From IMG/VR virus record IMGVR_UViG_3300007511_000019: 64,000 bases of DNA. One strand, given 5' to 3'. Of the stretch, positions 2,155 through 36,094 are shown piece by piece. How positions within the stretch are numbered: position 1 is the first letter of the stretch; each line of letters begins with the position of its first letter. The notes beneath the pieces are model-generated. The model did no database searches. It was not told the origin of the DNA and was given only the letters and a program-made list of their open reading frames with translations. The stretch comes from a virus. The position numbers and the translations under genes are program-made.

Positions 2155-2692
2155 CATGGCTATGGGAATTGAGGGGCTGACAACAGTCAAAGAACTCGAA
2201 TTCCTATATGACACGATTCTAAACGAGGTTCCAATTATCGGGTTGGTGGTAGAGCTAGGAACCTTCAAAGGCCGCTCCACCGCCGCTATTTGCGGAGCTG
2301 TAGTCGATCGACCTGGTCACCTATTTGTGATCGGCATCGATCATTTCAAGATGCAGCACCACGGCAAGAATGACCTGTGGACTACCCACAACAACCTGGC
2401 GGCACTGGGGTACTTTCCCGGACTTATGCGAGCCGAATCCACCAAACCTCAGCCCTCCATCAAACAAGTCTCAGCACTGATCATCGATACCGATCACAAG
2501 GCGTCGGTCCTAAACAAAGAGCTAGATGAGTGGCTGCCTAAGATCGTCGATGGTGGTGTGATCATCTTGCATGACTACGGTAGTGCTAAATGGCCCGAGA
2601 TCACCGACGTGGTAGACCAGAGGCTAACCAACAGCTCTGACTGGGAACTTCTCGGCCTGGCCGGGATGATGGTCGCTTTTAGAAAGCTATAA
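2135..2692 (+). CDS. class I SAM-dependent methyltransferase, TylF/MycF-like (macrocin-O-methyltransferase family)
   Basis: The motif GLVVELGTFKGRST resembles the TylF-family SAM-binding glycine-rich block. Downstream acidic residues are present (IDTDH). Confidence 0.55.
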   Translation: MKFQRVSMAMGIEGLTTVKELEFLYDTILNEVPIIGLVVELGTFKGRSTAAICGAVVDRPGHLFVIGIDHFKMQHHGKNDLWTTHNNLAALGYFPGLMRAESTKPQPSIKQVSALIIDTDHKASVLNKELDEWLPKIVDGGVIILHDYGSAKWPEITDVVDQRLTNSSDWELLGLAGMMVAFRKL

Positions 2693-2693
2693 C

Positions 2694-3545
2694 ATGACCG
2701 ACTACCGTTTGCCCGAGGGCAACGCTGAGTTCTGGGAACAACGTATCCAGAAACATGCCAACTCTTCCGACTCTTCCTGGGCTGACATTTTTGCCGTAGA
2801 GAAAGAGCGGGAGTCGTTGATCAGATGGTTGACCCCTTGGCTAACCCCCTACCCGATCACACTCGAGCCTACGCGGGCGTCTGTGATCCGACAAATCGAC
2901 TCATTTCTAGACGCTGGCTGCAACAACGGGCACTCTACTGCGGTTTACCGCAAGAATTTTCCCGAAATTGATTTTTACGGCTGTGATCTAAACCAGCAAG
3001 CGATCGATATAGCCTCAGCCGATTGCCCCAACTACTTCCAGCACGACGTTTGCGAACCCTTTGATCGGCAATGGGACGCCGTGTATACGTCTCGCGTTCT
3101 CTGTAACCTAGGCACTCGAGCCAGACAACATCAGGCGATCAAGAACCTAGCCGATGCAAGCCGCAAGCAGCTGATATTGCAGGAGCCTATTGGCGAGGGG
3201 TTCCGTACGCTGAATGCATTTCGAGTTGAGGTCGGGCTACCTGCGTTACAGATGCCGGAGCAAAATCTCTATCTTAATGGCGAGTTGACAACAAAGTGGC
3301 TACATGACCTAGGCTTTCGCCTGCTTGCTAGGCCATACGACAACCACAGCACCTACTTCGCTATCACCCGCGTTCTCAAGGACAAGTTGAACGTACCTGT
3401 TGCTGGGCAGGCATACACTTCTCAAATCAATAAGCTCGCCGCGTTACTGCCCAGCGTTGGCCAGTTTAGTCCTCACCGGTTTATGGTGTTTTACAATGAC
3501 CGCGAAACTGACGATGGGGTTGCTGACACACCGTCGGCCCAATAA
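2694..3545 (+). CDS. class I SAM-dependent methyltransferase
   Basis: Motif I is LDAGCNNGHS, post-I is YGCDLN, and motif II is DAVYTSRVL. Confidence 0.6.
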   Translation: MTDYRLPEGNAEFWEQRIQKHANSSDSSWADIFAVEKERESLIRWLTPWLTPYPITLEPTRASVIRQIDSFLDAGCNNGHSTAVYRKNFPEIDFYGCDLNQQAIDIASADCPNYFQHDVCEPFDRQWDAVYTSRVLCNLGTRARQHQAIKNLADASRKQLILQEPIGEGFRTLNAFRVEVGLPALQMPEQNLYLNGELTTKWLHDLGFRLLARPYDNHSTYFAITRVLKDKLNVPVAGQAYTSQINKLAALLPSVGQFSPHRFMVFYNDRETDDGVADTPSAQ

Positions 3546-4982: not shown

Positions 4983-5459
4983 ATGTACGAGACCCAAACA
5001 AACGTGTCTTCTGGCGTGAACGTGTATCTGTCCGGACCTATTACCGGTGAGGGCTACGACACGGTCACTGACTGGCGAAAAGAAACATCTGACGTTCTAG
5101 CGGGCTACGGAATTACAGCCCTGTCGCCGTTACGACACAAACACTACTTGGCAGGCGAGACTGAGATTGCTCCCTCGTACGAGGAGCACACGATGTCTAA
5201 GCAAAAGTCCATCACTAACCGCGATCGGTGGGATGTGATGCGGTCCGACGTAGTGTTTGTTAACTTGCTCAACACCAATCGCATCTCAATCGGCACGGTG
5301 ATGGAAATCGCCTGGGCTGATGCTTTCCGTAAACCAATCGTCTTGGTGATGGAGCAGGACGGGATGCATTCTCACCCACTCCTCGAGGAGGTCTGTGCGT
5401 TTCATATCGAGACGCTAGAAGAAGGTATCGAGGTTTTGAAGGGCCTTCTGGTCCCGTAA
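4983..5459 (+). CDS. nucleoside 2-deoxyribosyltransferase-like / SLOG-fold protein
   Basis: The N-terminal VYLSGPITG motif is present. The C-terminal block DVMRSDVVFVNL...ISIGTVMEIAWADAFRKPIVLV matches the NDT/LOG-like signature (D..D....SD....DSGT.fElG.A.A.gKPv). Confidence 0.5.
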   Translation: MYETQTNVSSGVNVYLSGPITGEGYDTVTDWRKETSDVLAGYGITALSPLRHKHYLAGETEIAPSYEEHTMSKQKSITNRDRWDVMRSDVVFVNLLNTNRISIGTVMEIAWADAFRKPIVLVMEQDGMHSHPLLEEVCAFHIETLEEGIEVLKGLLVP

Positions 5460-5467
5460 AGGACAAC

Positions 5468-6292
5468 ATGTTTGAACGATTTACCGACAGAGCACACCAT
5501 AGCTTCACCGAAGCCAAGCGTTTTGCCAAACGCCTGCGGCACGAGTACATCGGCGTAGAGCATGTCGTGTACGGTCTGCTCAAAAGCGGTGGCATTGCCC
5601 AGACCGTGCTCAACAACGCTAATGTCTTTGCCGGAGATGTCGAACGATTTATGGCTGCTCGGCTTGGCGACGGTCCTAGCTATATAGTCTATGTGGACAG
5701 CCTACCGAGGACTCCTCGCTGTAAACGTGTGACGGACAAGGCGATAACCTACTCAAGTGACGTGGATGGTCTGTACGTAGGAACTGAGCATCTGCTACTG
5801 GCTATACTGGACGAAGAAGACAGTATGTGGCTTGATCTGCTTAGCAAAGTAGGCTCACGGACTGTTGAGCAGCTTCGCATGGACGTTAGACTGTCGCCCA
5901 GTTCAGCGAAGCCGGTCACCTACATGTTTGGCGTATTTGACCCATTTCACGTGGGTCATTACATGCAGTTGGAGCGTGCTGCCGAGTTGGGCAGCAGCCT
6001 GATAGTCGGCGTCCAGTCTGACGCTGCCGTCGAGAACGAGCATGGAAACCCGCCGCTCTTGACACTTTCATCGCGTAGGCGGCTGCTTAACGCGTTGCCT
6101 GTTGTAGATGCAACGGTAACCTATACCGAACCCGACCAGTCCAGTGTACTTAGCGTTTTAGCTCCGAGCATCTTTGTCTGCGACCCGCTTTACGATCAGG
6201 AGCAAACTCTGGCATACTGCAAAGACAATAACATCCGCGTTGAGCGAATGTTGTCGGAATCGGTGCCATGTAATCCTCGTTCGATGTCGTAA
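5468..6292 (+). CDS. fusion of a Clp N-terminal repeat domain and a cytidylyltransferase-like nucleotidyltransferase
   Basis: Residues 1-140 contain two Clp_N repeats (YIGVEHVVYGLLKSGGIAQTVL and YVGTEHLLLAILDEEDSMWLDLL). The C-terminal half has GVFDPFHVGHYMQLERAAELGSSLIVGV, matching the (H/T)xGH motif of glycerol-3-phosphate cytidylyltransferase / RfaE domain II enzymes. Confidence 0.65.
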   Translation: MFERFTDRAHHSFTEAKRFAKRLRHEYIGVEHVVYGLLKSGGIAQTVLNNANVFAGDVERFMAARLGDGPSYIVYVDSLPRTPRCKRVTDKAITYSSDVDGLYVGTEHLLLAILDEEDSMWLDLLSKVGSRTVEQLRMDVRLSPSSAKPVTYMFGVFDPFHVGHYMQLERAAELGSSLIVGVQSDAAVENEHGNPPLLTLSSRRRLLNALPVVDATVTYTEPDQSSVLSVLAPSIFVCDPLYDQEQTLAYCKDNNIRVERMLSESVPCNPRSMS

Positions 6293-7021: not shown

Positions 7022-7567
7022 ATGACCACACGACCCCAGATGATTTATGTCGGTACGGAAGAGAATGCCAAGGCCGGGATCCTGACCCACGGCATTTTGG
7101 AAACCACAATGGAGAAGGCCAACGCAGCCGTTGAGGCACTGCAGGCCCTTCGACAATCCGTCAACAACCTTACGTTGTGTTGCGAGGCCACAGACCTCGC
7201 GGCCTGTCGGGACATCATCGACGGTGCCATCGACGAGATCAACGCCATGGCCGACGCGACGTCAACGACACTGGCGACAGCACTCGCGGCGGAGAGCCCG
7301 CATCGGCAAGGCCTAGCGGAACTAATGACCGAACGGCTTGGCGGACTCATGACGATGCTCAACAGCGGCGGCGGATCGAACACGGGCAGAAGCCTGAGTC
7401 TGGCTGAACTCTTTGGCCCGGGTACCGTGATCGAAGAACCTACTGCCCAGGACGGCTCATCGCAGCTTTCGCCAACCATGTCTTCGGAAACCTCCGAAGA
7501 TGGTGCGTCCTCGGACACTAGCGACCAAGCGGTTGACCCCAACCCTGCCAACCCGGTTTCGTCGTAG
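7022..7567 (+). CDS. hypothetical protein with an acidic, disordered C-terminus
   Basis: The ORF is 181 aa. An RBS (GGAG) lies upstream. It is followed by a strong intrinsic terminator. Confidence 0.4.
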   Translation: MTTRPQMIYVGTEENAKAGILTHGILETTMEKANAAVEALQALRQSVNNLTLCCEATDLAACRDIIDGAIDEINAMADATSTTLATALAAESPHRQGLAELMTERLGGLMTMLNSGGGSNTGRSLSLAELFGPGTVIEEPTAQDGSSQLSPTMSSETSEDGASSDTSDQAVDPNPANPVSS

Positions 7568-7589
7568 CCGGTCCGGCGGTCACAACTAA

Positions 7590-7627
7590 CACCCCTGGAT
7601 TGTAAGAAATCCAGGGGTGTTTTTCTT
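7590..7627 (+). terminator. rho-independent terminator
   Basis: Perfect 11-bp stem (CACCCCTGGAT / ATCCAGGGGTG) with an 8-nt loop, followed by TTTTTCTT. Confidence 0.75.
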
Positions 7628-7631
7628 ACAT

Positions 7632-8078
7632 ATGACCAGCACAATATTGCCTCTACCTCCCTTGTTGCCGAATTTCAGGCGAGAGTTGCATCTCGACGAT
7701 GTTGCGGTAATCTTACCTGGGTTTCAAAACTACATAGACGCGGAATGGCGTGTACTGTACTCTGCAGCCATGAACGTACAGCTGCGTACGGAGTTACCTT
7801 TCTTCGACTTTACGCAGCTGTATCCAGGCACTCGGCAGTTTCGTCACTTCTGCCGAGTTATTGGTAACATAGACACCGCTTCCGCCGAGTATCAGTACGC
7901 GGCAAAAGACGCTGACAAGGTAATGGAAGATTACCGAACAGCAATGCTCGAAGCTGCCGCTGGCCAACGCCTTTCGTTTATGCAAGAGGCGTTCGACCGA
8001 ACACGGTTGGTCGGTAATATAGCTCGAGCGTACGGTAAGCTCCAAGCACTGTACGCAGACGCCCGTCTCGATCTGTAG
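7632..8078 (+). CDS. hypothetical protein (start moved to the ATG at 7632, because the tracker GTG at 7617 lies inside the terminator)
   Basis: ORF in the same frame, 148 aa. Confidence 0.35.
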   Translation: MTSTILPLPPLLPNFRRELHLDDVAVILPGFQNYIDAEWRVLYSAAMNVQLRTELPFFDFTQLYPGTRQFRHFCRVIGNIDTASAEYQYAAKDADKVMEDYRTAMLEAAAGQRLSFMQEAFDRTRLVGNIARAYGKLQALYADARLDL

Positions 8079-8098
8079 CCAGTTCCGGAGAGGTAGGG

Positions 8099-8128
8099 TA
8101 GAATCAGGTAGATCGCCACCTGATTCTA
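8099..8128 (+). promoter_or_regulatory. TAGAAT -10-like hexamer embedded in a perfect 11-bp inverted repeat (TAGAATCAGGT-N8-ACCTGATTCTA); candidate promoter/operator or 5' hairpin
   Basis: The arms are perfectly symmetrical at 8099-8109 and 8118-8128. TAGCCA lies 17 nt upstream of TAGAAT. The element sits between the stop at 8078 and the ATG at 8138. Confidence 0.5.
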
Positions 8129-8137
8129 GGAACCCAA

Positions 8138-8968
8138 ATGACTGATCCCAGTTTTGCGGTATTTGACGAAGACCGATTTCCTCCCACGAGTAACCTCGCC
8201 GAAGCATATCAGCAAGAGGTTACCTACGGATACGAGGTAATGAAGGAACGATCGGTAGTGATCGCTGGTCTCGCTCGTAACATCGAAAAGGCAGTCCCGA
8301 TAACAACCTCCCGCATTGAGCGGCTAGGAGAGCTGTTTCAGGACTACCGTGTGGTGCTTTACGAAAACGACTCTCGCGACCGTACGCCTGAATTGTTACA
8401 GGCTTGGGCTGATTCCAACTCCAGCGTAGACCTTACGTCTGAACGCCGGGGCGATCCTGTGAATCCGCAAATCCGGTGTCTAAACCGGGCAGCCCGTATG
8501 GCTCACTACCGAAATCAGTGCCGACTCAAAATTGCGGAGAAGTACCCTGACGTAGATAACGTCATCGTACTTGATACCGACCTGACTGGCGGGTGGAGCT
8601 ACGACGGCATCGCCCACACCTTTTCCAAGACCGAGGCATGGGACTTCGTTGGAAGCAACGGGATCATGTTCAAACACTTTAACGGCCAGAACAACTACCC
8701 AGTCTACTTCGACGTCTGGGCATTTCGCTGGCAAGGCACCTATCAACCTTGCTTTGCACCAAAGATCAATCCCCGACGCTGGAACCGGGGCGAAGCTTTA
8801 GTTCCGCTCTACTCCTGCTTCGGCGGGTTAGGGGTTTATCGTGTAGAGGCAATGTTGCGGTGCTCGTACGACGGTTCGGACTGCGAGCATGTCCCATTTC
8901 ACCGCAAAATGCGGGAAGCCGGAATGGGCCGTATTTTCATGAACCCGAGCCAAATCGTACTCTATTGA
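8138..8968 (+). CDS. putative glycosyltransferase (GT-A-like)
   Basis: The protein is 276 aa with a DXD-like motif (VIVLDTDLTG). Its layout loosely resembles polysaccharide glycosyl/mannosyl transferases. Support is weak. Confidence 0.3.
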   Translation: MTDPSFAVFDEDRFPPTSNLAEAYQQEVTYGYEVMKERSVVIAGLARNIEKAVPITTSRIERLGELFQDYRVVLYENDSRDRTPELLQAWADSNSSVDLTSERRGDPVNPQIRCLNRAARMAHYRNQCRLKIAEKYPDVDNVIVLDTDLTGGWSYDGIAHTFSKTEAWDFVGSNGIMFKHFNGQNNYPVYFDVWAFRWQGTYQPCFAPKINPRRWNRGEALVPLYSCFGGLGVYRVEAMLRCSYDGSDCEHVPFHRKMREAGMGRIFMNPSQIVLY

Positions 8969-9764: not shown

Positions 9765-10307
9765 ATGACTACACAGTGTCAGCGGTACCTGGAGCTAACT
9801 GTAAGTTCCGAAGGAGTAATTCACCCGTCCGTAGGTGACTGCAGCTATTGTGGCAGCATACGACCACTGATCGCGGTCATGGACACGATCAGATACGAGG
9901 CCGGTAGGTGGACAGCACGTTGTCCCAATTGCAGTCGCGAACGTCAGGAAATCAGTGTCCTAAACTTCTTCGACGACAACGCCTGGTCTGTTGATCTGTC
10001 AAAACTTCGACAGTCGCTGCTGGACGAGTTTCGTCGGCGACAGAAACCGATCCCGTTTCCTGACCGTACCGGTACCGATACTTACCGCCGGTCGCGTCGG
10101 TTACGAAACCCTGGGCGTAACGGTGATCCGCCAGCATCGCCCCACAATTACTACGAACACGGTTCTGCCATATTCTCCCAGCCGTTTCACGACGAAATGT
10201 CCGGACGGACATACAGTGCGGGTTGTCAAACCTGCGGTTGCGAGCGGTGTCGTTTGTCTCGAGATCGCATCGCTCAAAGGATGTGGGAGGAAGAAGGGTT
10301 AAGGTAA
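9765..10307 (+). CDS. hypothetical zinc-ribbon protein (start at the internal ATG with RBS AAGGAAGGA)
   Basis: Cysteine pairs CSYCGS...CPNCS and a C-terminal CQTCGCERC are present. Confidence 0.4.
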   Translation: MTTQCQRYLELTVSSEGVIHPSVGDCSYCGSIRPLIAVMDTIRYEAGRWTARCPNCSRERQEISVLNFFDDNAWSVDLSKLRQSLLDEFRRRQKPIPFPDRTGTDTYRRSRRLRNPGRNGDPPASPHNYYEHGSAIFSQPFHDEMSGRTYSAGCQTCGCERCRLSRDRIAQRMWEEEGLR

Positions 10308-10600
10308 TGTTCATTCTGATTCGCTTGCTGATTGTTTTGGGGCTAGTCGCGGCCATCGTGTGGTTAGCCACTAAGCTGACGCATAGCCCATGGTTTGGAC
10401 GCCTTGTTGACGTATTTCTGGGGCACAAGCCCACTGACAGTGAATTGACTGGCAACATCGACGAAGCTCGAGCCGACCTTGCGAACAGGGTCGAGGCTAA
10501 CCGTCTTGAAGCCGAACGTCTTGACGCATCGCGTAGACGTCTGGAGGCACACGGCCTTGCAGACAAACAAGACCATGCAAATCCTGGCAAACCCAGGTAG
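10307..10600 (+). CDS. small membrane protein with one TM helix and a coiled-coil tail (start at the internal ATG)
   Basis: MFILIRLLIVLGLVAAIVWLA forms a TM segment, followed by a charged helical tail. The gene sits immediately upstream of the SPFH gene. Confidence 0.45.
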   Translation: MFILIRLLIVLGLVAAIVWLATKLTHSPWFGRLVDVFLGHKPTDSELTGNIDEARADLANRVEANRLEAERLDASRRRLEAHGLADKQDHANPGKPR

Positions 10601-10613
10601 GAGCAATTCACCC

Positions 10614-11960
10614 ATGGAACGTAAGCACTTTGCCTACGCAGCCGCCGCCGTTCTCGGCGTCGTCGCACTGATTGTTTTGTTTGGAAATATGGGGTACAAC
10701 CGCGACGACCAGTGGCAAATCCACCAGTCTGTTACGGGCAAGATCACGGTGATTGACCGTGGCGGTTACTACCTCAACATGTTCGGTACCGTAACTGACT
10801 ACCCGCGTTACCGTGACTCGTTCTACTCGGCCCACCACAAGGAAGGCGGTGAAGAGGACGATTCGATTCGGTGCACCTTTAACGACGGCGGCACCGCTAA
10901 GGTGTCGGTGTACGTTAGGTTCTCCACTCCCCCAGAGGAGGACCAACGTCGAGCATTCCACCGTGTGTATTCTGCGAACATTGACAACACCTCGCAGGCG
11001 GTACGGGCTCACCTTGTTAACTGCGTTAAAGCGGCGGCACCGCTAATGTCTGCTAGCGAGAACCAGGCGTCACGCAAAGCCGAGTTTGCTCAAGTCATTC
11101 AGAACATGATGCAAGACGGCCTATACGTGATGCGACAAACAAGAGTTACTCTCGAAGATCAGGCGTTGATCGAAGTAGAGGCCAACGCGGACGGTAAGGC
11201 TCCCGTTCTTCGCGAGAAGCCTACCGAGGTTATGGCGACAGAGATCGTGCGAGATACCGAGACAGGTAAGCCGCTGATCGCTGAAGCATCGCCACTGACC
11301 AAGTACGGTATCGGGGTTGAGCAATTCTCGGTTACCGATATTGACTATGATCCAGAGACCCTCAAACAGTTCGCTGCGAAGAAAGAATCGTTCTTGCTGG
11401 CGGAACAGGCTAAGGCCCAACGACAGCAGTTCGTACAAGAGAAGCTGAAGATCATCGCTGAAGGTGAATCTGAAGTTGCCCGTATCGAGCAAGAGGGAAA
11501 CAAAGAGAAGATGGCCGCGACAGTATCCGCCGAGAAAGAGGCGGCTGTGGCAATCATCAACAAAGATAAAGCCGTGACCGAGGCTACACAAAAGGTCGAG
11601 GTGGCCCAGCAAGAAAAGCTGGAAGCCGACACCCGATTTGAGATTGCCGAAGTCCAGGTCAAGATCGCGGAAGAGGATAAGAAGGCCGAGATTGCCGTCG
11701 CCGAAGCCAAACAAAAGGCTCTGGAGATCGGCGGTGCTCTGTCGGAAGAAGAACGCGTTCTTGCAGAGATCGCTGCCGAACGCGATGCTAAGGTCGCCAC
11801 AGCCCTTGCTGGGTTAAAGGTACCAGGCGTCGTCATCGTCGGCGGTAAAGGTAGTGACTCAGGTGGTGGCGGAGAAAATCTCCAAAGCAATCTGATCAAC
11901 CTTACACTGTTGCGAGCCCTGGGGATCATTCCCAAAGACGCGACGAAGCCCGTCGAGTAA
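10614..11960 (+). CDS. SPFH/band-7 (flotillin/YqiK-like) membrane protein (start at ATG 10614 with RBS AGGTAGGAG)
   Basis: An N-terminal TM segment (AAAAVLGVVALIVLF) is followed by an SPFH-like globular region. The long C-terminal E/A/K/Q-rich coiled coil (AEQAKAQRQQFVQEKLKIIAEGESEVARIEQEG...) is typical of flotillin/HflKC-type proteins. Confidence 0.65.
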   Translation: MERKHFAYAAAAVLGVVALIVLFGNMGYNRDDQWQIHQSVTGKITVIDRGGYYLNMFGTVTDYPRYRDSFYSAHHKEGGEEDDSIRCTFNDGGTAKVSVYVRFSTPPEEDQRRAFHRVYSANIDNTSQAVRAHLVNCVKAAAPLMSASENQASRKAEFAQVIQNMMQDGLYVMRQTRVTLEDQALIEVEANADGKAPVLREKPTEVMATEIVRDTETGKPLIAEASPLTKYGIGVEQFSVTDIDYDPETLKQFAAKKESFLLAEQAKAQRQQFVQEKLKIIAEGESEVARIEQEGNKEKMAATVSAEKEAAVAIINKDKAVTEATQKVEVAQQEKLEADTRFEIAEVQVKIAEEDKKAEIAVAEAKQKALEIGGALSEEERVLAEIAAERDAKVATALAGLKVPGVVIVGGKGSDSGGGGENLQSNLINLTLLRALGIIPKDATKPVE

Positions 11961-11992
11961 ACGTGAGTTGCCAACGCAACTGCTGAAGTGAA

Positions 11993-12028
11993 GCACCGGG
12001 ACCCAAAGATCCCGGTGCTTTTGCTTTT
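11993..12028 (+). terminator. rho-independent terminator after the SPFH gene
   Basis: The stem is GCACCGGGA / TCCCGGTGC with an 8-nt loop, followed by TTTTGCTTTT. Confidence 0.7.
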
Positions 12029-12051
12029 AACAACCATGGCTAGGAGTACGG

Positions 12052-12453
12052 ATGCCAACAACCAACCAACTGGTTCGCAAGAACCGCAGAAAGCCAAGGA
12101 ACAAGTCCAAGCACCGGCTGATGCAGGAAAACCCGCAGCGGCGAGGAACAGTGCTAAAGGCTTGGGTGATGTTGCCGCGTAAGCCCAACTCAGCTAACCG
12201 CAAGGTGTGTCGGGTCCGGTTTGCCGATGGCAACGAGGCGACGTGCCACATTCCGGGCGAAGGCCACAACATCGTGGAGCACAACACCGTGCTCGTGCGA
12301 GGCGGCGGCCCACCTGATCTGTCCGGCGTTAAGTACCGTGTTGTTCGCGGTACGCTTGACTGTATCGGCGTTACCGAAGGTGCTAACAAGCAGCGGCGAA
12401 ACCAAGGCCGCAGCAAGTACGGTTCGCCAAAACCGTCCAAAGCAAAGAAGTAG
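12052..12453 (+). CDS. rpsL: ribosomal protein uS12 (S12) homolog, bacterial type
   Basis: The match to bacterial S12 is near full length: [14 protein letters not shown]..., [51 protein letters not shown], and SKYG. An RBS (AGGAG) lies 9 nt upstream. Confidence 0.85.
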
Positions 12454-13285: not shown

Positions 13286-14020
13286 ATGTCCAACATCCCG
13301 TTAGTGACTGCTGTAATGGTCACCGGGAAGGATCCTGAAAGAGCACCGTATGCTCTGGCGGCAGTACAGAGCTTCTTGTCGCAAACCTGGCCCAATAAGG
13401 AATTGGTCATCATCAATGACGGCAAAGTGCCGTTGTTACCGTTCCTGTCTACCAGTTTACCCCCTGGTACCGATATTAGAGAATCGACATTTCCGTCAGG
13501 AGCTTACACACTAGGCGATCTTCGTAACAAAGGCTTAGAGAAAGCTGACGGCGAATGGGTTATACAGTGGGACGATGACGACTGGTACCATCCTTGGCGA
13601 ATCGCTATGCAGATGGACGAGGCCGTTGACGACCACGCCGTTTTGCTAAAGTGTCAAGTCCGATACAGTTTTCCTAACGATTCTGCGAAAGCTTTTCGGT
13701 GGCCTTACAAACCCAACCCGGCCATTCCCGGCACCGTTCTGCACCCCAACAAACCAGGCCTGGCCTATCGTTCTGAGCGTAAAGCTGAGGACGACCACTT
13801 TTTGCAAGACCACTTCAAGGACAAAATGATCGTTCTTGATAATGCAGCCAACCCGCACCTCTACTTGCGGTTTTTCACAGGACACAACACGTGGGACCAT
13901 TTCCACGTCATGGGTCTGCACGCTAACCCGGACCATAAAGGTAGGTGGACCTTACCAGAAGAATCTTCTGATTACCTTCGTACGGTCATTGACACCCACT
14001 ACAAATTTGCGGTTAGCTAA
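13286..14020 (+). CDS. glycosyltransferase family 2
   Basis: VTAVMVTGKDPERAPYALAAVQSFLSQTWPNKELVIINDG matches the GT2 N-terminal block, and there is a DXD motif (QWDDDDWYH). Confidence 0.65.
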   Translation: MSNIPLVTAVMVTGKDPERAPYALAAVQSFLSQTWPNKELVIINDGKVPLLPFLSTSLPPGTDIRESTFPSGAYTLGDLRNKGLEKADGEWVIQWDDDDWYHPWRIAMQMDEAVDDHAVLLKCQVRYSFPNDSAKAFRWPYKPNPAIPGTVLHPNKPGLAYRSERKAEDDHFLQDHFKDKMIVLDNAANPHLYLRFFTGHNTWDHFHVMGLHANPDHKGRWTLPEESSDYLRTVIDTHYKFAVS

Positions 14021-14953
14021 ATGCCAGAATCCATCCAACAATATCTGATCACTGGAGCCAACGGCCAGCTAGGGATGGAACTGGTGCGGCAGCTGGGCGA
14101 GGAGTCTGTAATAGCCAAGCCCCGCGAGACCTTCAACGTATCCGACATGACGAAGGTCAAGGAACTGATTCCTTTGCTGCGACCAGCCGCTGTTATCCAT
14201 ACCGCTGCTATGACGGATTGGGTTACTGCCGAACACAAGCGGAATGATTGCTGGCAGACTAACGTTCAGGGGACGGACAATCTCGTTAAGGTATGTGCCT
14301 TGCACGGGATTCCTTTTGTACATATCAGTTGTGACAGTGTTTTCGGCTCCAACCGCGACCCTAGGCCGCGTACGGAGACCGATCCGGTGGTGCCTTGCCA
14401 CCAACTGGCTATTACGAAAGCATGTGCTGAGCACAGCGTGCTCCGACTTGGGCAATGTGTTTGCCCCGAGTTTTGGCAAAAAGGCTTCCGGTACTGGGTT
14501 ATTCGCACAGGACTTCTGTACGAACGCCCATGGCGACAAAACCAGAACCTCGTCAGCCGGATACTTCGTCAAGCGGATAACCGCCGTGGCGAAGAGGTGT
14601 CCCTTGCTTCCGACATGATCTTCACTCCGACATACGCTCCGCACCTGGCCAAGGCTCTGGTCTGGTTGGTGCGGCACTACCGTGAAATGCCGTCGGGTGT
14701 ATACCACGTTGGCAATCTAGGTCACTGTTCTGCCTACCAGTTTGGGCAAGAAATCTCGTCAAATTCACGACGTCCGCTAAAGATCCGGTCAACTACACGC
14801 GAACAGATGTCGCAGGCCTTCGGTGGCTGGGACGCTAAGCTCCTGCCATACCATACGGCTCTCGACTGTAGCAAATTCGCTGATGTAGTACCTATTCCTC
14901 TGCCGGATTGGCGGGAAGGTGTCGAGCAATTTTCGCTTGACTACGAGAGTTAA
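14021..14953 (+). CDS. RmlD-like NAD(P)H-dependent 4-ketoreductase (dTDP-4-dehydrorhamnose reductase family)
   Basis: The N-terminal LITGANGQLGMEL motif, followed by VIHTAAMTDWVTAEHKRNDCWQTNVQGTDNLVKVCALHGIPFVHISCDSVFG, matches the RmlD substrate-binding-domain family. Confidence 0.65.
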   Translation: MPESIQQYLITGANGQLGMELVRQLGEESVIAKPRETFNVSDMTKVKELIPLLRPAAVIHTAAMTDWVTAEHKRNDCWQTNVQGTDNLVKVCALHGIPFVHISCDSVFGSNRDPRPRTETDPVVPCHQLAITKACAEHSVLRLGQCVCPEFWQKGFRYWVIRTGLLYERPWRQNQNLVSRILRQADNRRGEEVSLASDMIFTPTYAPHLAKALVWLVRHYREMPSGVYHVGNLGHCSAYQFGQEISSNSRRPLKIRSTTREQMSQAFGGWDAKLLPYHTALDCSKFADVVPIPLPDWREGVEQFSLDYES

Positions 14954-18729: not shown

Positions 18730-20509
18730 ATGCCCAATATCTTGCTGCCTGAACTCAGCACTGACGCCGAAGAGATGTCTATGCTCGGATTCCCGATCGG
18801 GAATTTGGAGAAGGTATCATCACCCCTAACAGGGGGTTTGTGGCCAGAACTTCTTTCGTATCTTCCCGTTCGGGAAAATCGCCTCCATGGGGAAATTCAC
18901 GAAAAGAGGGGTGAAGACGCGAAAGGCATTCCAGACCGAAAGTACTATGGCGACCTATCTAGAGTTTCTCCGCAGTTACTGGACTTCGTTATCCAACGGC
19001 ATCTTGCCGAGAGAGCTGGCCCTCACTTTGATTTCCGATTCGGAGACCCCAAAGGGCTCTTCTCCTGGGCAACCAGAAAACCGATGCCCGGCATTGGCGG
19101 ACGAACCGCCCTATTCCAGCAGCCCATGCACTCCTACAAGTACAAAGATTGGGAGGGCACAATTCCTAGCGGACGCTATGGGGCTGGACGGGTTAAGAAA
19201 CAAGAGGATGGCAAACTTCTCATTACCAAAGCCAGTCCGGAATCTATCCACTTCACCATGGCCCACAAGAAGCACCCGCAACGCTTCGTGATGATCAAAC
19301 CGAAGGGCTGGAAAGATAAAGACTGGTTGCTTATCAACAAGACCCCGACTGAGCAATTGCCGTACGAGAAAGTACGGTACAAAAAGATTCCAGCGGAGCA
19401 GGTCGACAAGTACATCGGCCAAATGCAAAAAGGCGATACTCTGGAGGCAAAGGTTGACGGGGCCTCCTCGCTGATTAAACTAATGAAAGAGGGCGTCGAG
19501 GTGATGTCCTACCGTACGTCCAAGGAAACGGGCCGACCGATACTTCACACAGAAAGATTGCTTCATGGTCTCCCCGCTTACAACATCCCAGACGACCTGG
19601 TTGGCACGGTACTTAAAGGCGAACTCTACGGAGTGCGACCTGGAGGATCCGGAGATGGTGATGGCTCCGCTGACAAGGGAGACCCTCTACGCGGCCATGT
19701 TGCTGATGAACCTCAGCTGGCGGAAGGGAGCTTTGAACCTGACGGAGGGCGAGAAAGAGATACTCGAGTTTCAGAGAGAGCAGACCAGGAGGATGTTCCC
19801 GGAACTGTTAGGCCCCAAGACGACGGACTCGGAGAATATCTTCAAGAGGCTCTTTCCGCCGGTACCGGTAGACCAACTCAGCGAGAGCGAGTACTCCGCC
19901 CTCAAGAACTTGGAGGACTGCTCAACTCCTCCGTCGCCAAATCAATCCAAGACCAGCGAGAGCGACAAGTAAAACTCAGAAATGCCGTTTACGATATCCA
20001 ACAGCTAGGCAACAAACCAATCGACTGGCATGTGACTCCCCGGCTCGAGCGTAGGGATATGATTCGAAAAGTTCTTGAGCACCTACCGCCCGAGACGTTT
20101 CACATCTCAGAAGCCGCAGAGACGCCCGAAGCCGCCCAGAGACTCTGGCAACAAATACAGTCTGGTGAGCACCCGATTACTCGAGAGGGTGTAGTCATGC
20201 ATCCGCTACACGGTCCCCCCACGAAAGGAAAAATTTTAGAAGACGTAGACGTGTATTATCGCCAAGCATTTCCGGGCAAAGGTAAACACGAAGGATCGGG
20301 TGCTGGCGGCTTCGAATACTCACTCACACCTGACGGGCCTATAATTGGTAAGGTAGGAACAGGTTTCACGGACGAGTTACGCAGGTCCCTTTTCGAGAAC
20401 GATCAAGACTATGCCGGAAGGATTGCACGAATCCAATCGCAAGAACAGCTTCCTAGCGGAGCTTATCGAGCACCGAGCTTTCTGGCTTTTCACGAGGATC
20501 AACCTTATG
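18730..20509 (+). CDS. LigD-type 3'-phosphoesterase domain fused to an ATP-dependent polynucleotide ligase (no in-frame stop, so the 3' end is uncertain; the tracker ORF runs to 21927)
   Basis: PE domain: GPHFDFRFGDPKGLFSWATRKPMPG...DWEGTIPSGRYGAGRV matches the LigD phosphoesterase signature. Ligase motifs: I is KVDGAS, III is LKGELYG, IIIa is AVYDI, IV is EGVVMH, plus an OB fold (GKVGTGFTDE...RAPSFLAFHED). A low-complexity insert of about 110 aa lies between motifs III and IIIa. Confidence 0.6.
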
Positions 20510-21046
20510 CAACAACGAAACAGTCTAGGCAGGTTTCTGCAAGGACACAAATCCAGAACGACTCACGGACAAAGTGGAACGAAAACATACAAGGTGTGGG
20601 CGGGGATGAAACGCCGCTGCCTGGACCCAAAACGGCACAATTACAAACACTACGGAGGACGAGGCATAAAGATATGTGCAAGGTGGCGGGACTCCTTCGA
20701 GAACTTTCTGGAAGACATGGGAACGTGCCCAGACGGTTATTCGCTGGAGAGGGAGAACAACGACAAAGACTACTGTCCCACGAATTGCACTTGGATACCT
20801 CTCGAGAAACAGGCAGCAAACACTCGGAGCAACGTGTGCTTGACTTTTCGCGGCGAAACCAAGCATCTGACACAATGGGCGAGAGAGTCGGGAATCAGGC
20901 AGCAGACATTGACCAGGCGTCTTCAGCGAGGTTGGTCCGTGCAGCGTGCACTAACCGAGAAGCCAGTAGTAGGCAAAAATCAATTCTCGTCCAGCCAGAC
21001 CTCGGACTCACGTCTGAAAAACTCGCTGAACTCGGGATCGGAATAG
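20507..21046 (+). mobile_element. free-standing HNH/AP2-like homing-endonuclease gene with a C-terminal helix-turn-helix (+1 frame relative to the ligase ORF)
   Basis: YKVWAGMKRRCLDPKRHNYKHYGGRGIKICARWRDSFENFLEDMG...GYSLERENNDKDYCPTNCTWIPLEKQAAN is typical of phage HNH homing endonucleases, and LTQWARESGIRQQTLTRRLQRGWSVQRAL is an HTH tail. The ATG at 20507 coincides with the expected C-terminus of the ligase OB domain. Confidence 0.6.
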
Positions 21047-21049
21047 ATC

Positions 21050-21927
21050 CCGACGAGCACACAGCCCTGGAAAAAGAAGCCTCACTTGCTAGACTTCTGA
21101 CACTACCTGGCGTCAAGCACCTACTTCGCTGGCAGTCAAAGCTTGGTCGGAAGGCTAACGACTACTTGTGGAACAAACTGCTAACCGCAAATCGCCGAAC
21201 CGCGTTGGGCACCGCAGGCGTCGTAGGCGGTGCCGGTTACGGCGGCTACCGGATGGGCCAAGGCGACTGGCAAACTCCAGGCGACATTCTACACGACCCG
21301 ATCATCCAAAAGCCGCTGGAATGGTCTACAGTTATCCCGGAGAAATATAACATCCCATTGTGGACAGCAGCAGGTATTGCTGGTGGCCGTAGTGTGGGCC
21401 GTCACGCGGCCCAAGCCGCCGTAGGCAGTGCCAACGCGTTGCGGCGGCTAGTTACGATGCAGCCCTTATCGCAAGCGTTGTCTGGTCAAATCGGTAGTAC
21501 CCTTGGTGTTGCTGGGCCTATCTTAGGCGGTGCCAAAGGCGGCGTCGGAACCTACTACACTCACCGGGCAGTAGAGAAAGCCAGGGAAGCTGCTGAGCAG
21601 CCAACAGTACCTGAAGTCAAGCACAGCACAGATTCGCACTACCTGCGAGCCTTCTCCCAAGTAAACCCTGCACACCTTTACCGAGGCGACCAGTCTGCTC
21701 TGCGTAACGCTAGCAACTACATCAACGCCTTGTTAATACAGGGTCGGCAAAACGTCGCCAAAGCCTATAATACTGATAGCCTCAACCTGGCCTTGGCTCC
21801 GATGGGGCAACGTTGGCAACGAGCCTTGGCCAGTCTTGAGGGTTACGATCCCATCATGTCCAATCCCCTTGATCGGGTGTTGCACATGATGCCAGCAACC
21901 CCGCAGCTGAGTCGTCCGTACGTATGA
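21050..21927 (+). CDS. Gly/Ala-rich putative membrane/virion protein encoded by the 3' part of the 18730-21927 ORF (start undefined)
   Basis: Segments such as TAGVVGGAGYGG, AAGIAGGRSVG and GVAGPILGGAKGG resemble the downstream gene 21953-22792. There is no ATG near the 5' end, so an alternative start or continuation of an upstream exon is possible. Confidence 0.3.
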
Positions 21928-25116: not shown

Positions 25117-25894
25117 CCAACCTACCTTCTACGACGCTGTACAACACGTCACTGCTAAGGCTTTGCAACGTAAAGCTCTAGCTGGAGCAGGTACAGCGGC
25201 ACTAGCTGGTCTCGGTACTGGTGCAGGTCTACGAGGTATCCTCGGCCTGTTGGAAATGAGCAGGCAAGGTGCCCAGCCGCCCCAGGCTCAAGCCCCTACC
25301 GGTCAGATCGAGGTCCCGGTGGACGACGAGAAGATCGCTGCCTTGGCGGATTTCCTCAAAGGCGACTATGCCAAATCGACTTCTGGTGTGCCTTGGGCCA
25401 TTCCTGCCGCTGTTGGTGCCGGTGCTGCCGGAGCGTACGGTGGTTGGAAAGGTATCGACGCACTGCTCGAGCAAAGACGAAAAGGCGAACTAGAGGCTGA
25501 GCTTGAAAAAGCCAAGATGGACTACGAAGCTGCCTTGTCTGGCGACACCAAGTTAGCGGAAGACCTGGACGAACTCTACGACACAGTAGAGAAACAAGCT
25601 GTCTCCGCGTCAGACGCAGCAGGAACGGCTACAGGACTCTACGGAGTCTACGGCGGTACTTCAGCTTTGTTGGCCGCCATTATGGCTTACCAATACGGTA
25701 AGAAGCGACAACGCCGGTCCTTGCTTGAAGCGGCACAAGAGAAACGCCGCCGACAACGCTTTGCACGACAACCTGTGCCGATCCAAGTACGGCCAGTGCC
25801 TAAGCAGCATGAGCAGGACCCGCTGCAGGCAAGTAAGTCCCCGTTCCAGGCCGCACCTAGCTTGGACGAACAAGAAGATCAACTGGATAAGTAA
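25058..25894 (+). CDS. hypothetical Ala/Gly-rich membrane-associated protein with a charged C-terminus (start uncertain; the tracker start is 24986)
   Basis: An RBS (AAGGAA) precedes the ATG at 25058. It is TAATG-coupled to the RNAP gene at 25894. Confidence 0.35.
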   Translation: MTNLALVLKASRQSSEKSANQPTFYDAVQHVTAKALQRKALAGAGTAALAGLGTGAGLRGILGLLEMSRQGAQPPQAQAPTGQIEVPVDDEKIAALADFLKGDYAKSTSGVPWAIPAAVGAGAAGAYGGWKGIDALLEQRRKGELEAELEKAKMDYEAALSGDTKLAEDLDELYDTVEKQAVSASDAAGTATGLYGVYGGTSALLAAIMAYQYGKKRQRRSLLEAAQEKRRRQRFARQPVPIQVRPVPKQHEQDPLQASKSPFQAAPSLDEQEDQLDK

Positions 25895-28800
25895 TGCCAA
25901 ACATTCTGTCACCGCCCTCCGGCGTGCTAAGCGGGACCAAACCTGCTCTGCCGCAACCGGTACGTCCTCTGCAAAAAGAGGAACCGGAAAAGCGAGAGTT
26001 CGGTGACGCTTTGGCCACGCGGCGGCTTATCTACAACAACGTGCTGGCGTCGACTCAAACACTTGAGCCGATCTCTAACCAACGCCACACGCTACAACTG
26101 CGTGATGTTAAATACGCTGACGATCCCAAGTTCTCGTACAAGCAGCAAAAGGAAGCCATCCTCGGCGGTAAGAGTCTCAACCGTCGACTGCAAGGCACCT
26201 GGGAGCTGTCGGATAACGAAACTGGCGAAGTGCTTGACAGCAGGCCCGGCGTAGTTGCTCGTGTACCGCACCTGACGGATCGCGGTACGTTTATCCACAA
26301 CGGTAACGAGTACACCCTGTCCAACCAGATGCGGTTGCGGCCAGGCGTGTTTACCCGTGTCAAAGACAATGGAGAAATTGAAGCCCACGCAAACCTATTG
26401 CCGGGTAAAGGCGTCAGCCACCGGTACTTCCTAGACCCCGAGAAGGGTATTTTCCACATGCGGATGGGGCAGGCGAAAATACCGCTGATGCCTCTTCTCA
26501 AGTCGCTCGGAGCAACAGACAAACAATTGCAGGAAGCATGGGGCAACGAACTGTGGCAAGCTAACGCTCAAAAGGACAACCCAGGAACCCTATCGAAGCT
26601 GTACCAAAAACTGGTACGTAAGATTGACCCTGATGCCGACGAGCCAGCTAAACGCCTAGCCGTTGCCGAAGTCATGGAGAAAATGGAACTGGACCCCGAG
26701 GTTACACAACGAACCTTAGGTAACAGTTTCAACAGGATGGGGTTGGATGCGATTCTAGCCACCACCAATAAATTGCTCGCAGTATCCCGTGGAGAACAGG
26801 AGGTCGATGACCGTGATCATCTCGCTTATCAAAATGTCCTGGGCCCAGAAGATTTGTTCGCGGAACGTATCGCAAAGGATTATGGCGGACTCCGCCGACA
26901 ACTTTTGCATAGATCTAGCTTTAAGGGAGACTTGTCAGCCGCACAGTCCGGTATGCTAAGTCGCCAGTTAGAAGCCGCGTTACTCCATTCTGGATTAGGG
27001 CAAAGCCTTGAAGAAATCAACCCAGCAGACATCTTCGACAAACAATCAAGAATCTCACGTCTCGGTGAGGGCGGCATCCCGTCCATCGACGCCGTGCCAG
27101 ACGAAGCTAGGGCGGTTCAGCCGAGCCACTTGGCTTTCATGGACCCAGTACGCACGCCGGAATCATTTAAGGTCGGTGTGGATGTGCATATTGCCAACAC
27201 GGCTCGTAAAGGATCTGATGGCCGAATTTACTCACCGTTCGTTGATCCTCGTAGCGGAAAAGAGGTGTGGAAGTCGCCCCAGGACCTTGCAGATCTCACA
27301 GTCGCTTTTCCCGGCGAAATGCGTAGGGAAACTAAGCGGGTTGGTGCCATGCAAGGCGGCAAACTCAAGTTTGTCCCAAAACAGTCTGTGGACCTGGTTG
27401 TGCCCACTTTCGAAAACGCTTTCTCGCCGCTAGGTAACATGGTTCCCATGAAGTCAGCGGTCAAGGCCCAGCGTATGGCTATGGCTAGCCGTATGCTCAC
27501 ACAGGCCTTGCCGCTCGAGAACGCAGAGAGTCCGCTTGTACAGACCGGCATCTCTGGCGAAGAGGATACAAGTTACGAGCAGCGATATGGTCGTAAGATG
27601 GGTGCCGTCTTCGCCGACAAGCCAGGACGAGTAGTTTCAATAAGCGACCAAGGGATTAAGGTCAAGTACGACGACGGAACTACAGAAGAGAAGCAGCTCT
27701 ATAACAACTTCCCGTACAACCGCAAAAGCGTAACCGGTGACACTCGTATTGTGATCCGACGCAAGAATGGCGAACTGTGGACTGGATCAATCGATAAGTA
27801 CCACTGGGAAGATAGCGACCAAGTGCAGTCGGTGGACCCAGACTCCAAGCAGTCTGCCTGGAAACGCGTCACAGGTTACATTACGCACTGCAACGACAAA
27901 CAGCTGTTGCGGATAACTACTAAATCCGGGAGATCGGTCGTGGTCACGGAAGACCACAGCCTTATTACGCTGGACAAACACGGAGAACTGGTACCGGTCT
28001 ACCCTAAAGACTGCGAGATCGGGCTAACCCGCCTGCCTGTAGCCATGTTGCAGGGTCATCGATCTCGGCGACATGGCCAGGAGATTAGCAAAGACCCGAG
28101 CGGCATTCTGTGGGGGCTGTACGTAGCCGAGGGGCACTGTCCGCCTACCCAACCAGGGCTAGTTAACATTGCAGTAGAGCCAGACGACCGTGCAGAACAG
28201 GTGTTGGAAGTGGCTCGTCAGTGCGGTTATGAGGCGTACCGCAATGGCGGTAACGTATGCTTTACTGACCACGCCTTCGCCGCCAAGGCGACTGAGCACT
28301 TTGGCCACCTGTCGCACAACAAGCGAATTCCCGCCTGGGTGCTTGGTACTCCCGTCTGGTTTCGGGAAAGTTTTGTTCAAGGCTATATGGCTGGCGACGG
28401 GTGCTTGTGGGAGGACTCAAACGGGTCGCTACAGCTGCAGGCCGTTACGGTTTCTAGAGAGCTTCGCGACGGATTTGTCGAGTTGCTGTTAAGCCTAGGC
28501 ATTATGACGACGCTTTTCGATGCACCTAGAAAGCACCTCAACGACAACTGGCGTGACGCGTACGGTTGCCGCATAATCAGTAGCCACGTAGGGCGACTTC
28601 GTAAGTGGTTCTACTACGCAGACCGTGAGCGACAACTCCACGAGCTGCTAAAGCCTACGTATCGAGCCGCAAGCTTTGACCTGGTCCCGGTAGCCGCCGA
28701 GGCCCGTAAACTTCTGTACAAGGGTTATATCGGGACGGTTCCTAGCTATGTCTATAAGACCGCCAACCAGGGAGCAGTTGCTAAGCACCGGTTGAAAGAA

Positions 28801-32792: not shown

Positions 32793-33045
32793 GCAATTGC
32801 GGGCTCGAATGGCCCGACCAGCTACCCCCACACTCAAAGTTCTGTCTGTCTGGGTACAGCACGGAGTAGAACAGCAGTTACTGCCCATAGCATCTGGCGA
32901 TGACGACGCCCAGCTGCGTGGACTGCTTGCAAATTGGGAGCAGCAACTGGACTACGGGGAAATGGTCGCTTCAAACATGCGGTATCTAGGGCGGCACCGG
33001 ATTGTAACAGTTCCTTTCATCGGACGGCAAAATGGCAAAGCGTAA
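32761..33045 (+). CDS. hypothetical protein
   Basis: The 94-aa ORF overlaps both neighbouring genes. Confidence 0.25.
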   Translation: MALQGGFGVPEQLRARMARPATPTLKVLSVWVQHGVEQQLLPIASGDDDAQLRGLLANWEQQLDYGEMVASNMRYLGRHRIVTVPFIGRQNGKA

Positions 33046-36000: not shown

Positions 36001-36094
36001 GACCGGAACCAGCTTTGTGGCCGGTCGGGCGAAGGCCGTTGACTTTGGTCGTACAGGTATTATCCAAACTCCGAAGGAGCCTCCCAAACCATGA
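33032..36094 (+). CDS. rpoC: RNA polymerase beta' C-terminal (rpoC2-like) subunit, interrupted by an intein
   Basis: [12 protein letters not shown]...KKGLSKLL matches beta' at AILNEILP...KKAISKML. Further matches are [25 protein letters not shown] to [41 protein letters not shown] to TRRLVDVAQDLVVTEDD, and [23 protein letters not shown] to [23 protein letters not shown]. Confidence 0.85.
   Translation: [1020 protein letters not shown]
33665..34843 (+). mobile_element. intein (393 aa) with a LAGLIDADG endonuclease domain in RNAP beta'
   Basis: It begins [10 protein letters not shown] (Cys1, Hint block A) directly after the GFL of the GYL|TRRL-equivalent site, and ends ...NGAIVSN with Ser at +1. 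LAGLIDADG-like motifs are [14 protein letters not shown] and [12 protein letters not shown]. There is no penultimate His. Confidence 0.65.

Follow-up and report, generated by a model that had tools for sequence, protein, structure and literature searches.

Background

A general model has been described for SPFH proteins, in which they assemble into cages shaped as domed rings, and the AAA proteases are enclosed in this way by HflK/C and by prohibitin (PMC12624060, PMC13220708, PMC12478178). The biology of the HflK/C-FtsH system has been treated in detail (PMC13220708, PMC12005517), while a second kind of arrangement is provided by the NfeD-SPFH operons, e.g. QmcA-YbbJ, FloA-NfeD and PH1511-PH1510. 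Although the structure of SPFH cages is understood, their cargo and purpose are unclear in most bacteria and unknown in viruses. Virus-encoded SPFH/Band 7 proteins are on record from T4-like, Vi01-like, RaK2-like, T5-like and crAss-like (Kehishuvirus) phages and from giant viruses, the phage genes since 2006 without a function, and in the papers that we searched no tested function of a virus-encoded SPFH protein was found. In this study we analysed a pair of adjacent genes, coding for a 97-aa membrane protein and a 448-aa SPFH/Band 7 protein, in the IMG/VR virus record IMGVR_UViG_3300007511_000019, a stretch of 64,000 nucleotides hereafter referred to as the window.

The window SPFH protein resembles HflK and HflC in its N-terminal transmembrane (TM) helix, in a body predicted to be periplasmic, and in the order of body, long helix, second helix and C-terminal segment, and HflK/HflC are also its best structural match (7vhq). 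Unlike them, it is encoded by a single SPFH gene with a small single-pass partner upstream, contains a 123-residue helix, has no visible link to ftsH and lacks detectable similarity to them at the level of sequence profiles, tandem paralogs being found only in its cellular relatives. Prohibitin and erlin share with it strong fold matches, type II anchoring and a body on the non-cytoplasmic side of the membrane, the last two as predicted for the window protein, but they are hetero-oligomers of two paralogs with 10-16% identity to the window protein, and no small co-encoded partner is known for them. Flotillin differs in having a C-terminal domain and attachment through a hairpin, whereas the window protein carries Band_7 only and an N-terminal TM helix, and the fold match is weaker.

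As in the NfeD-SPFH operons, the window SPFH gene is accompanied by an adjacent, co-directional and co-inherited gene for a membrane protein. In contrast to NfeD, this partner is devoid of an OB-fold domain and consists of one TM helix and a long charged helix, the latter tentatively predicted on the other face of the membrane than the SPFH body; several hydrophobic segments are present in YbbJ, against the single TM helix of the window partner. The QmcA-YbbJ complex faces the cytoplasm (PMC13086221), and the window SPFH protein is predicted to be periplasmic instead.

A conserved pair of genes

An earlier note on this DNA had described the pair as two open reading frames (ORFs) separated by 13 nt and resembling an NfeD-SPFH or HflKC operon. 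The ORF list bears out both genes, their positions and the 13-nt gap between them. In five other contigs of the same phage, recovered from several samples, independent gene callers give the same genes of 97 and 448 aa. The small protein has 97 aa rather than the 98 first reported, and its single TM helix is reproduced in an AlphaFold2 (AF2) model. The likeness to an operon was upheld insofar as the pair is a conserved two-gene unit that includes a small membrane protein, and was not upheld with regard to an NfeD or HflKC identity. The elements of the locus are as follows:

10285..10304, + strand: purine-rich tract GGGAGGAAGAAGGGTTAAGG, Shine-Dalgarno-like, ahead of the small ORF, as read from the sequence
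10307..10600, + strand: small ORF, 97 aa, with ATG at 10307 and TAG stop at 10598-10600
10599..10603, + strand: AGGAG ribosome-binding site of the SPFH gene, across the small ORF's TAG stop, with the ATG following after 10 nt
10614..11960, + strand: SPFH/Band 7 gene, 448 aa, with ATG at 10614 and stop at 11958-11960
11990..12031, + strand: 12-bp GC-rich hairpin followed by a T-rich run, from a terminator scan, 30 nt past the SPFH stop

The TAA stop (10305-10307) of an upstream 180-aa ORF, which has the same length in the gene calls on sister contigs, overlaps the ATG of the small ORF in the sequence TAATG, and the position of AGGAG over the stop of the small gene is compatible with coupled translation of the pair. 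The RNA of 11961-12051 folds at -33 kcal/mol (z = -3.0 against shuffles), and the hairpin is likely to be an intrinsic terminator that ends the transcription unit before an rpsL-like gene. The TAATG overlap, the AGGAG on the stop and the terminator hairpin together suggest that the pair closes a transcription unit and could be translationally coupled.

The conservation of the pair was assessed across 21 distinct phage-type loci, namely 18 IMG/VR contigs (47-461 kb), a 233-kb metagenome contig from the Joint Genome Institute (JGI), a 137-kb contig binned with a Thermoguttaceae metagenome-assembled genome (MAG), and the window. In all 21, the ORF immediately preceding the SPFH gene is 71-100 aa long and combines a TM segment at the N-terminus with a charged tail. 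The gap between the two genes ranges from -11 to +132 nt in the 20 related loci, and the pairing persists over SPFH identities to the window protein of 37% to 58%. An all-against-all search of the loci revealed no third conserved neighbour beyond sub-clade synteny. Given this synteny, together with the profile match obtained from other loci and the substitution ratios reported below, the sequences indicate that the small gene and the SPFH gene are homologous across loci and co-inherited, and that their pairing goes far beyond chance.

A divergent member of the SPFH superfamily

The Pfam profile Band_7 (PF01145) matches residues 41-271 of the 448-aa protein with 36.2 bits against a gathering cut-off of 23.6 (E=8e-9), which bears out the SPFH assignment of the earlier note, and Band_7 is the only Pfam match in this protein at E<=0.1. 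A second match is to phrog_11908, an uncharacterised phage family (E=1.7e-43), while no NCBIfam model, those for HflK/HflC included, matches at E<=0.1, and PADLOC gives no match. This is a compact family: more than 237 full-length sequences were collected, the best 120 of them at 47-58% identity, and an exhaustive profile search of 1.84 billion representatives found 1174 proteins at E<=1e-3, including 330 at E<=1e-30.

The AF2 model of the SPFH protein, built on 26 homologs, has a mean predicted local distance difference test score (pLDDT) of 75, and divides the protein into the following parts:

10620..10685, + strand: N-terminal TM anchor, residues 3-24 (AF2 helix)
10689..11348, + strand: SPFH alpha/beta body, residues 26-245 (AF2; Pfam match 41-271; invariant columns)
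11130-11246, + strand: long beta-hairpin insertion within the SPFH body, residues 173-211 (AF2)
11352..11720, + strand: single 123-residue helix, residues 247-369 (AF2), about 18 nm long if straight
11742..11810, + strand: second helix, residues 377-399 (AF2), the coiled-coil 2 equivalent
11811..11957, + strand: C-terminal segment, with a strand-like VPGVVIVGG motif, a Gly-rich variable linker and an amphipathic helix

The anchor has a Kyte-Doolittle value of 2.47 and is kept in 26/26 aligned homologs, and residues 247-399 consist of 21% A, 18% E and 12% K, in agreement with the earlier description of an N-terminally anchored protein with a long EA-rich helical region. In the SPFH body, the motifs FNDGGTA and MSASENQASRKAEF are invariant in the homolog alignment. 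The 123-residue helix corresponds to coiled-coil 1, which forms the wall of SPFH cages, and Foldseek alignments extend over it in HflK/C, prohibitin, erlin and flotillin. In the homolog P0066 this helix carries an 18-residue insertion (alignment columns about 336-353), equal to five full helical turns, which fits a wall helix that changes its length with the register preserved. The C-terminal segment is conserved among homologs as VP-x-VV-x-GG, followed by a helix of the form L-x-x-N-L-x-N-L-x-L-L-(K/R)-x-x-G-I; in the monomer model, pLDDT is low at 401-425 and a helix lies at 422-435. From the known SPFH cages, we take this segment to be the candidate cap.

In a Foldseek search of the PDB, 44 chains matched at E<=1e-3, and all the matches listed are SPFH-domain cage proteins, including HflK/C (7vhq, E=1e-8) and prohibitin (8rrh, E=8e-8) as the best, erlin (9vvg, E=3e-7) and flotillin (9bq2, E=7e-6), with further matches to stomatin (9z7u), QmcA-YbbJ (8z5g) and the major vault protein. 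Sequence identity to these proteins is only 10-16%. Against a viral structure library, the best matches of the window protein are phage proteins. By profile and modelled fold, the 448-aa protein is thus a divergent and genuine SPFH/Band 7 protein with an N-terminal anchor; profile, fold and anchor place it in the superfamily, and its sequence places it in none of the HflK/HflC, flotillin and QmcA subfamilies. The HflKC operon of the earlier note could not be sustained, as the 64-kb window holds one SPFH gene only and hhalign probabilities to HflK and HflC stay below 4%.

A family of small membrane partners

Single-sequence AF2 modelling of the 97-aa protein gives helices only, with a linker before the last of them:

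10310..10381, + strand: TM helix, residues 2-25 (AF2; Kyte-Doolittle maximum 3.01)
10388..10417, + strand: short juxtamembrane helix, residues 28-37, PWFGRLVDVF (AF2)
10436..10576, + strand: 47-residue charged helix, residues 44-90, rich in A, R, D, E and L (AF2)

The juxtamembrane helix corresponds in the alignment to a basic segment, R-x-L-I-x-S-x-W-F, of the small-protein family. The protein has no match in Pfam, NCBIfam, PHROG or PADLOC, and a word-index protein search returned only a 99%-identical copy of itself, for which reason homology was established with a local hidden Markov model (HMM). For this HMM, eight small proteins from other loci were used and the window was left out; run against 3441 ORFs, among them the 459 of the window, it matched the small ORF alone among the 459 (E=1.4e-4), and on iteration it recovered almost only ORFs located upstream of SPFH genes. 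The small proteins of other loci have 12-26% pairwise identity to the window copy, and the ratio of nonsynonymous to synonymous substitution rates (dN/dS) is 0.04-0.24 in six pairs of relatives, indicating purifying selection. On these comparisons the small protein is a member of a new, fast-evolving family that partners this SPFH clade.

Weak matches of family members to DUF4446 (5/20 members, best E 3e-4) and to ATP-synt_B (2/20) were treated as compositional, both being look-alikes that combine a TM segment with a coiled coil. In one locus, L008, the small gene is divided between two overlapping frames (5573-5980 and 5653-5868), with the TM part in one and the charged tail in the other, whereas the near-identical copy in L029 is intact; the split points to a frameshift, to an error in sequencing or to programmed slippage.

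The earlier note had also proposed an NfeD-like partner, and this identity was rejected: PF01957 is unmatched in the small protein and in 20 family members, the model consists of helices only with no OB fold, and the tail is predicted, less firmly, on the membrane side opposite to the SPFH body. The small protein might still act as a minimal analogue of NfeD, promoting or regulating SPFH oligomerisation from the same side of the membrane. The adjacent, co-directional and co-inherited genes, arranged as in the NfeD-SPFH operons (PMC13086221), and the presence of QmcA-YbbJ 8z5g among the fold matches speak for such a role. The lack of PF01957 in any of the 20 members, the helices-only structure with its single TM helix and the bias in lysine and arginine (K/R) described below, which puts the tail opposite the SPFH body, speak against it, and we regard it as improbable.

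Counterparts in bacteria and distant phages

In a scan of one genome per species, the SPFH clade was found in assemblies labelled Planctomycetota, Verrucomicrobiota (Akkermansiaceae), Victivallales, Myxococcota and Patescibacteria/Saccharibacteria. Several of the gene contexts are evidently cellular. On the complete chromosome of Schlesneria sp. T3-172, genes for a small protein (100 aa), SPFH-A (449 aa) and SPFH-B (538 aa) follow in this order, flanked on one side by a PAS/MCP chemoreceptor gene and on the other by a dioxygenase gene. The trio of small protein, SPFH-A and SPFH-B recurs in a Planctomycetota MAG amid DUF1501, DUF1559 and sulfatase genes, and in Akkermansiaceae MAGs the small gene and a single SPFH gene stand amid SurA-like and 2-hydroxyacid dehydrogenase genes. 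Tandem SPFH paralogs occur in the cellular relatives L036, L037, L039 and L043, and the window protein is about equidistant from the A and B paralogs (255 vs 243 bits). In another locus, L038 (labelled Planctomycetaceae), a gene for a sigma-70-like protein and one for a PARP catalytic-domain protein flank the pair (2423-3349 and 7382-8740), and the contig could be of viral origin itself.

More distant phage SPFH proteins were detected by tblastn at about 25% identity to the window protein. In the Vibrio phages pVp-1 and River4, the SPFH gene directly follows a 52-aa gene for a TM segment and charged tail; the upstream position is occupied by a 63-aa TM protein in a crAss-like Bacteroides phage and by one of roughly 75 aa in the 462-kb phage LR756500, and in Vibrio phage CHOED the small-protein homolog CHOED_063 is located four genes upstream. 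Phage SPFH proteins such as those of pVp-1, River4 and CHOED belong to the same PHROG as the window protein (phrog_11908), several with a similar small TM gene upstream; unlike them, the window protein falls in a tighter clade centred on bacteria of the Planctomycetota-Verrucomicrobiota (PVC) group and their large phages. The simplest reading of these sequence relationships is that the pair is a cellular PVC module also carried by the large phages of these hosts.

This distribution bears on two roles that would be dedicated to the phage. Small membrane proteins are the usual effectors of superinfection exclusion by phages, and the pair could alter or sequester inner-membrane components needed by incoming phage DNA, a view with which its membrane location and its position in a non-structural, auxiliary-gene region are in keeping. 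On the other hand, PADLOC gives no match, and the pair is kept in bacterial chromosomes outside prophage-like contexts, which would be unexpected for a dedicated exclusion device; we consider exclusion, or a block of entry, quite improbable. The 'superinfection exclusion protein' that the literature places beside the SPFH gene of the Vi01-like phage PhiSH19 was rejected as a counterpart, being soluble and acidic, and the SPFH protein of that phage is of a short, unrelated lipoprotein type.

Control of lysis timing, in which the small protein would be a holin, antiholin or i-spanin analogue organised or restrained by the SPFH protein, appears very improbable. In being small, with one TM helix and a charged tail, the protein shows generic features of holins, and in the crAss-like phage a peptidoglycan hydrolase gene stands two genes from the SPFH gene. 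The scanned neighbours in the window, though, include no endolysin or lysis cassette, the pair is chromosomal in Schlesneria and Akkermansiaceae, away from phage genes, and an i-spanin requires an N-in/C-out orientation, opposite to that suggested by the K/R bias of the small protein. A dedicated exclusion or holin role is less likely because the pair occurs in chromosomal, non-prophage contexts.

Predicted topology and a membrane-cage model

In the SPFH family, the flanks of the TM helix contain on average 1.6 K/R on the N-terminal side and 0.27 on the C-terminal side, and the difference in net charge between the flanks (C minus N) is negative in 26/26 sequences, with a mean of -3.5. From these charges the SPFH protein is probably oriented N-in with its body in the periplasm, as are HflK/C, prohibitin and erlin. 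The small-protein family (20 members) has the reverse bias, with 0.3 K/R in the N-terminal flank vs 3.1 in the C-terminal flank, which somewhat favours an N-out orientation with the charged tail in the cytoplasm.

We propose a dome because of the fold, the anchor, the long wall-forming helix, the conserved C-terminal segment and the analogy with solved SPFH proteins. Many SPFH copies, side by side, would close into a homo-oligomeric dome above the host cytoplasmic membrane, on its periplasmic face, with the 123-residue helices as its wall and the C-terminal segment as its cap, and this dome would fence a patch of that membrane. Of the 97-aa partner, the TM helix would sit within or beside this patch, and the 47-residue charged helix would be exposed to the cytoplasm. 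Most likely, the phage would in this way compartmentalise or shield part of the host inner membrane during infection; our best guess, by analogy, is that host membrane proteins would be corralled, with an FtsH-type quality-control protease as the prime candidate, and that the membrane would be kept functional through a long infection. That the pair is a self-contained membrane-cage module common to phage and PVC bacteria, with a partner other than NfeD, which compartmentalises the host membrane, has in our judgement an even chance of being correct, and the parts of it that we infer are the oligomeric cage, the topology, the physical contact of the small protein with the SPFH protein, and what the pair targets or does during infection.

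Several results weigh against this model. Concerning topology, the net-charge bias of the small-protein family is weak (mean +0.75; 12/20 positive, 4 zero and 4 negative, the window copy being 0); of the E. coli controls, net charge gives HflC correctly as negative and leaves HflK and QmcA neutral, and the raw K/R count would misplace both HflK and HflC. Confidence in the orientation of the small protein is lower because the K/R count misjudges these controls and the net-charge bias is weak. Concerning the fold, neither the SPFH protein nor its family profile gave a significant match when the PDB was searched by sequence, so that solved relatives were found only by fold; compared with E. coli HflK, HflC and QmcA, the profile showed no significant similarity, with hhalign probabilities of 0.2% for HflK, 3.4% for HflC and less than 4% for all. 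Concerning the partnership, the Victivallales chromosome L031, Aeromonas phage 1233 and Pseudomonas phage Milchi have SPFH genes without an adjacent small TM gene, from which it follows that the partner is not obligatory in the wider family. Finally, in the phage and cellular loci examined, no gene for FtsH or another protease, for lysis or for exclusion accompanies the pair consistently, and for this reason the FtsH-type target is put forward by analogy only. The sequence data do not discriminate between the roles suggested in the earlier note, namely remodelling of membrane microdomains, protease regulation and superinfection exclusion.

A stricter version of the protease idea holds that the cage is a trap of the HflK/C type enclosing host FtsH hexamers, and that the helix of the small protein acts on FtsH and protects phage proteins. 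Lambda CIII and SpoVM are models for the action of a small protein on FtsH. The predicted N-in/periplasmic orientation is the same as that of HflK/C, the best Foldseek matches, HflK/C and prohibitin, both cage AAA proteases, and the cellular relatives occur as tandem A and B paralogs, like hflK-hflC. Nevertheless, there is no sequence relation to HflK/HflC nor an NCBIfam match to either, and no ftsH or other protease gene lies near the pair in any locus, the only nearby AAA gene (in L001) being Cdc48-like. We consider such a trap unlikely, and the analogy with HflK/C retains some force through the predicted orientation and the tandem paralogs of chromosomal relatives.

The AAA ATPase gene of L001, downstream of the pair, was examined as a candidate FtsH and rejected, its product being Cdc48/VCP-like and the gene seven genes away. 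In the same 233-kb phage contig, an adenylosuccinate synthetase (purA-like) gene is located one gene downstream of the SPFH gene (L001, 8642-9979). In E. coli (L052), purA follows hflK-hflC and yjeT, a gene for a small membrane protein (DUF2065); YjeT has two hydrophobic segments and is without a charged helix, and the proximity of purA in both cases may be a coincidence.

Phage identity and gene neighbourhood

PHROG searches of the window identified a minor tail protein (phrog_13352, E=2e-41) and a virion structural protein (phrog_1645, E=7e-92), nearly all genes share one strand, and no tRNAs are present. Two long ORFs on the + strand, at 25894-31551 (1885 aa) and 33032-36094 (1020 aa), give piecewise matches to several phage 'RNA polymerase beta subunit' PHROGs; the pieces correspond to phage-type RNA polymerase beta and beta', which hints at multisubunit RNA polymerase genes, either fused or split, such as are typical of jumbo phages. 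The two PHROG matches, the phage-type RNA polymerase subunits and the near single-strand gene direction identify the window, by gene content, as phage DNA. The GenBank phage collection contains no close DNA relative, a near-identity search with the first 25 kb of the window yielding only a 37-bp chance-like match. A 1065-aa protein is encoded at 18730-21927 (+), in which only the central residues 241-613 are similar to ATP-dependent DNA ligase (phrog_114, E=1e-14).

The genes around the pair are auxiliary in type, and include glycosyltransferases, an RmlD-like reductase, a nucleoside deoxyribosyltransferase, a Clp_N-cytidylyltransferase fusion, a GNAT protein, a 2H phosphoesterase and uS12, besides hypothetical genes. 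Sugar-modification genes lie on both sides of the pair (8138-8968, 13286-14020 and 14021-14953, all +), and in Pfam this set comprises a CAP59-like/GT2-like transferase, a family 2 glycosyltransferase and an RmlD-like dTDP-sugar reductase; their target could be DNA or the host envelope. Further upstream, 4983-5459 and 5468-6292 (+) encode a protein similar to nucleoside 2-deoxyribosyltransferases and, in an unusual combination, Clp_N repeats fused to a cytidylyltransferase-like domain.

Directly upstream of the pair, the 180-aa ORF at 9765-10307 (+) is Cys-rich, with paired CxxC-like motifs (CSYCGS...CPNCS and CQTCGCERC). It has no match in Pfam, PHROGs, NCBIfam or PADLOC, and in the all-against-all neighbour search it was not kept beside the pair in other loci. 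In another phage-type locus, the 137-kb contig from the Thermoguttaceae MAG bin, a gene for a Ro60/TROVE and vWA protein stands immediately upstream of the pair (L004, 4069-5667).

Directly downstream of the pair lies a bacterial-type uS12 (rpsL) gene at 12052-12453 (+), with an AGGAG of its own and also present on sister contigs of the same phage; it scores 146 bits against a cut-off of 113 for TIGR00981, and matches Pfam Ribosom_S12_S23 with E=3e-23. The PKKPNSA and RVKDLPGV regions of E. coli S12 read PRKPNSA and GPPDLSGV in the phage protein, at positions tied to streptomycin response and decoding accuracy. A survey of 14 virus-encoded ribosomal proteins does not contain 'S12' in its text (PMC6375957).

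Conclusions

The PVC-centred SPFH clade with its dedicated family of single-pass partners was not found described in the literature searched. If both topology predictions are combined with the cage model, the pair could be a two-sided device, with dozens of partner TM helices filling or lining the membrane patch under a periplasmic dome and a dense array of 47-residue charged helices on the cytoplasmic side, which we regard as speculative and rather unlikely. If true, it would be a phage platform joining a cage in the periplasm to a surface for docking or inhibition in the cytoplasm, perhaps serving as a membrane-anchored array of FtsH inhibitors or as an anchor for phage replication or assembly, and it would represent a new class of SPFH accessory subunit in PVC bacteria and several phage lineages.

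If the pair is instead an ordinary host-like auxiliary unit, it nonetheless establishes a new family of small proteins and an SPFH clade centred on the PVC group. As a compact, conserved two-gene unit in phages and in their likely hosts, with distant counterparts in cultivable Vibrio and Bacteroides phages, it makes approachable by experiment both what a virus would gain from fencing host membrane and what role small accessory subunits may play in SPFH cages.

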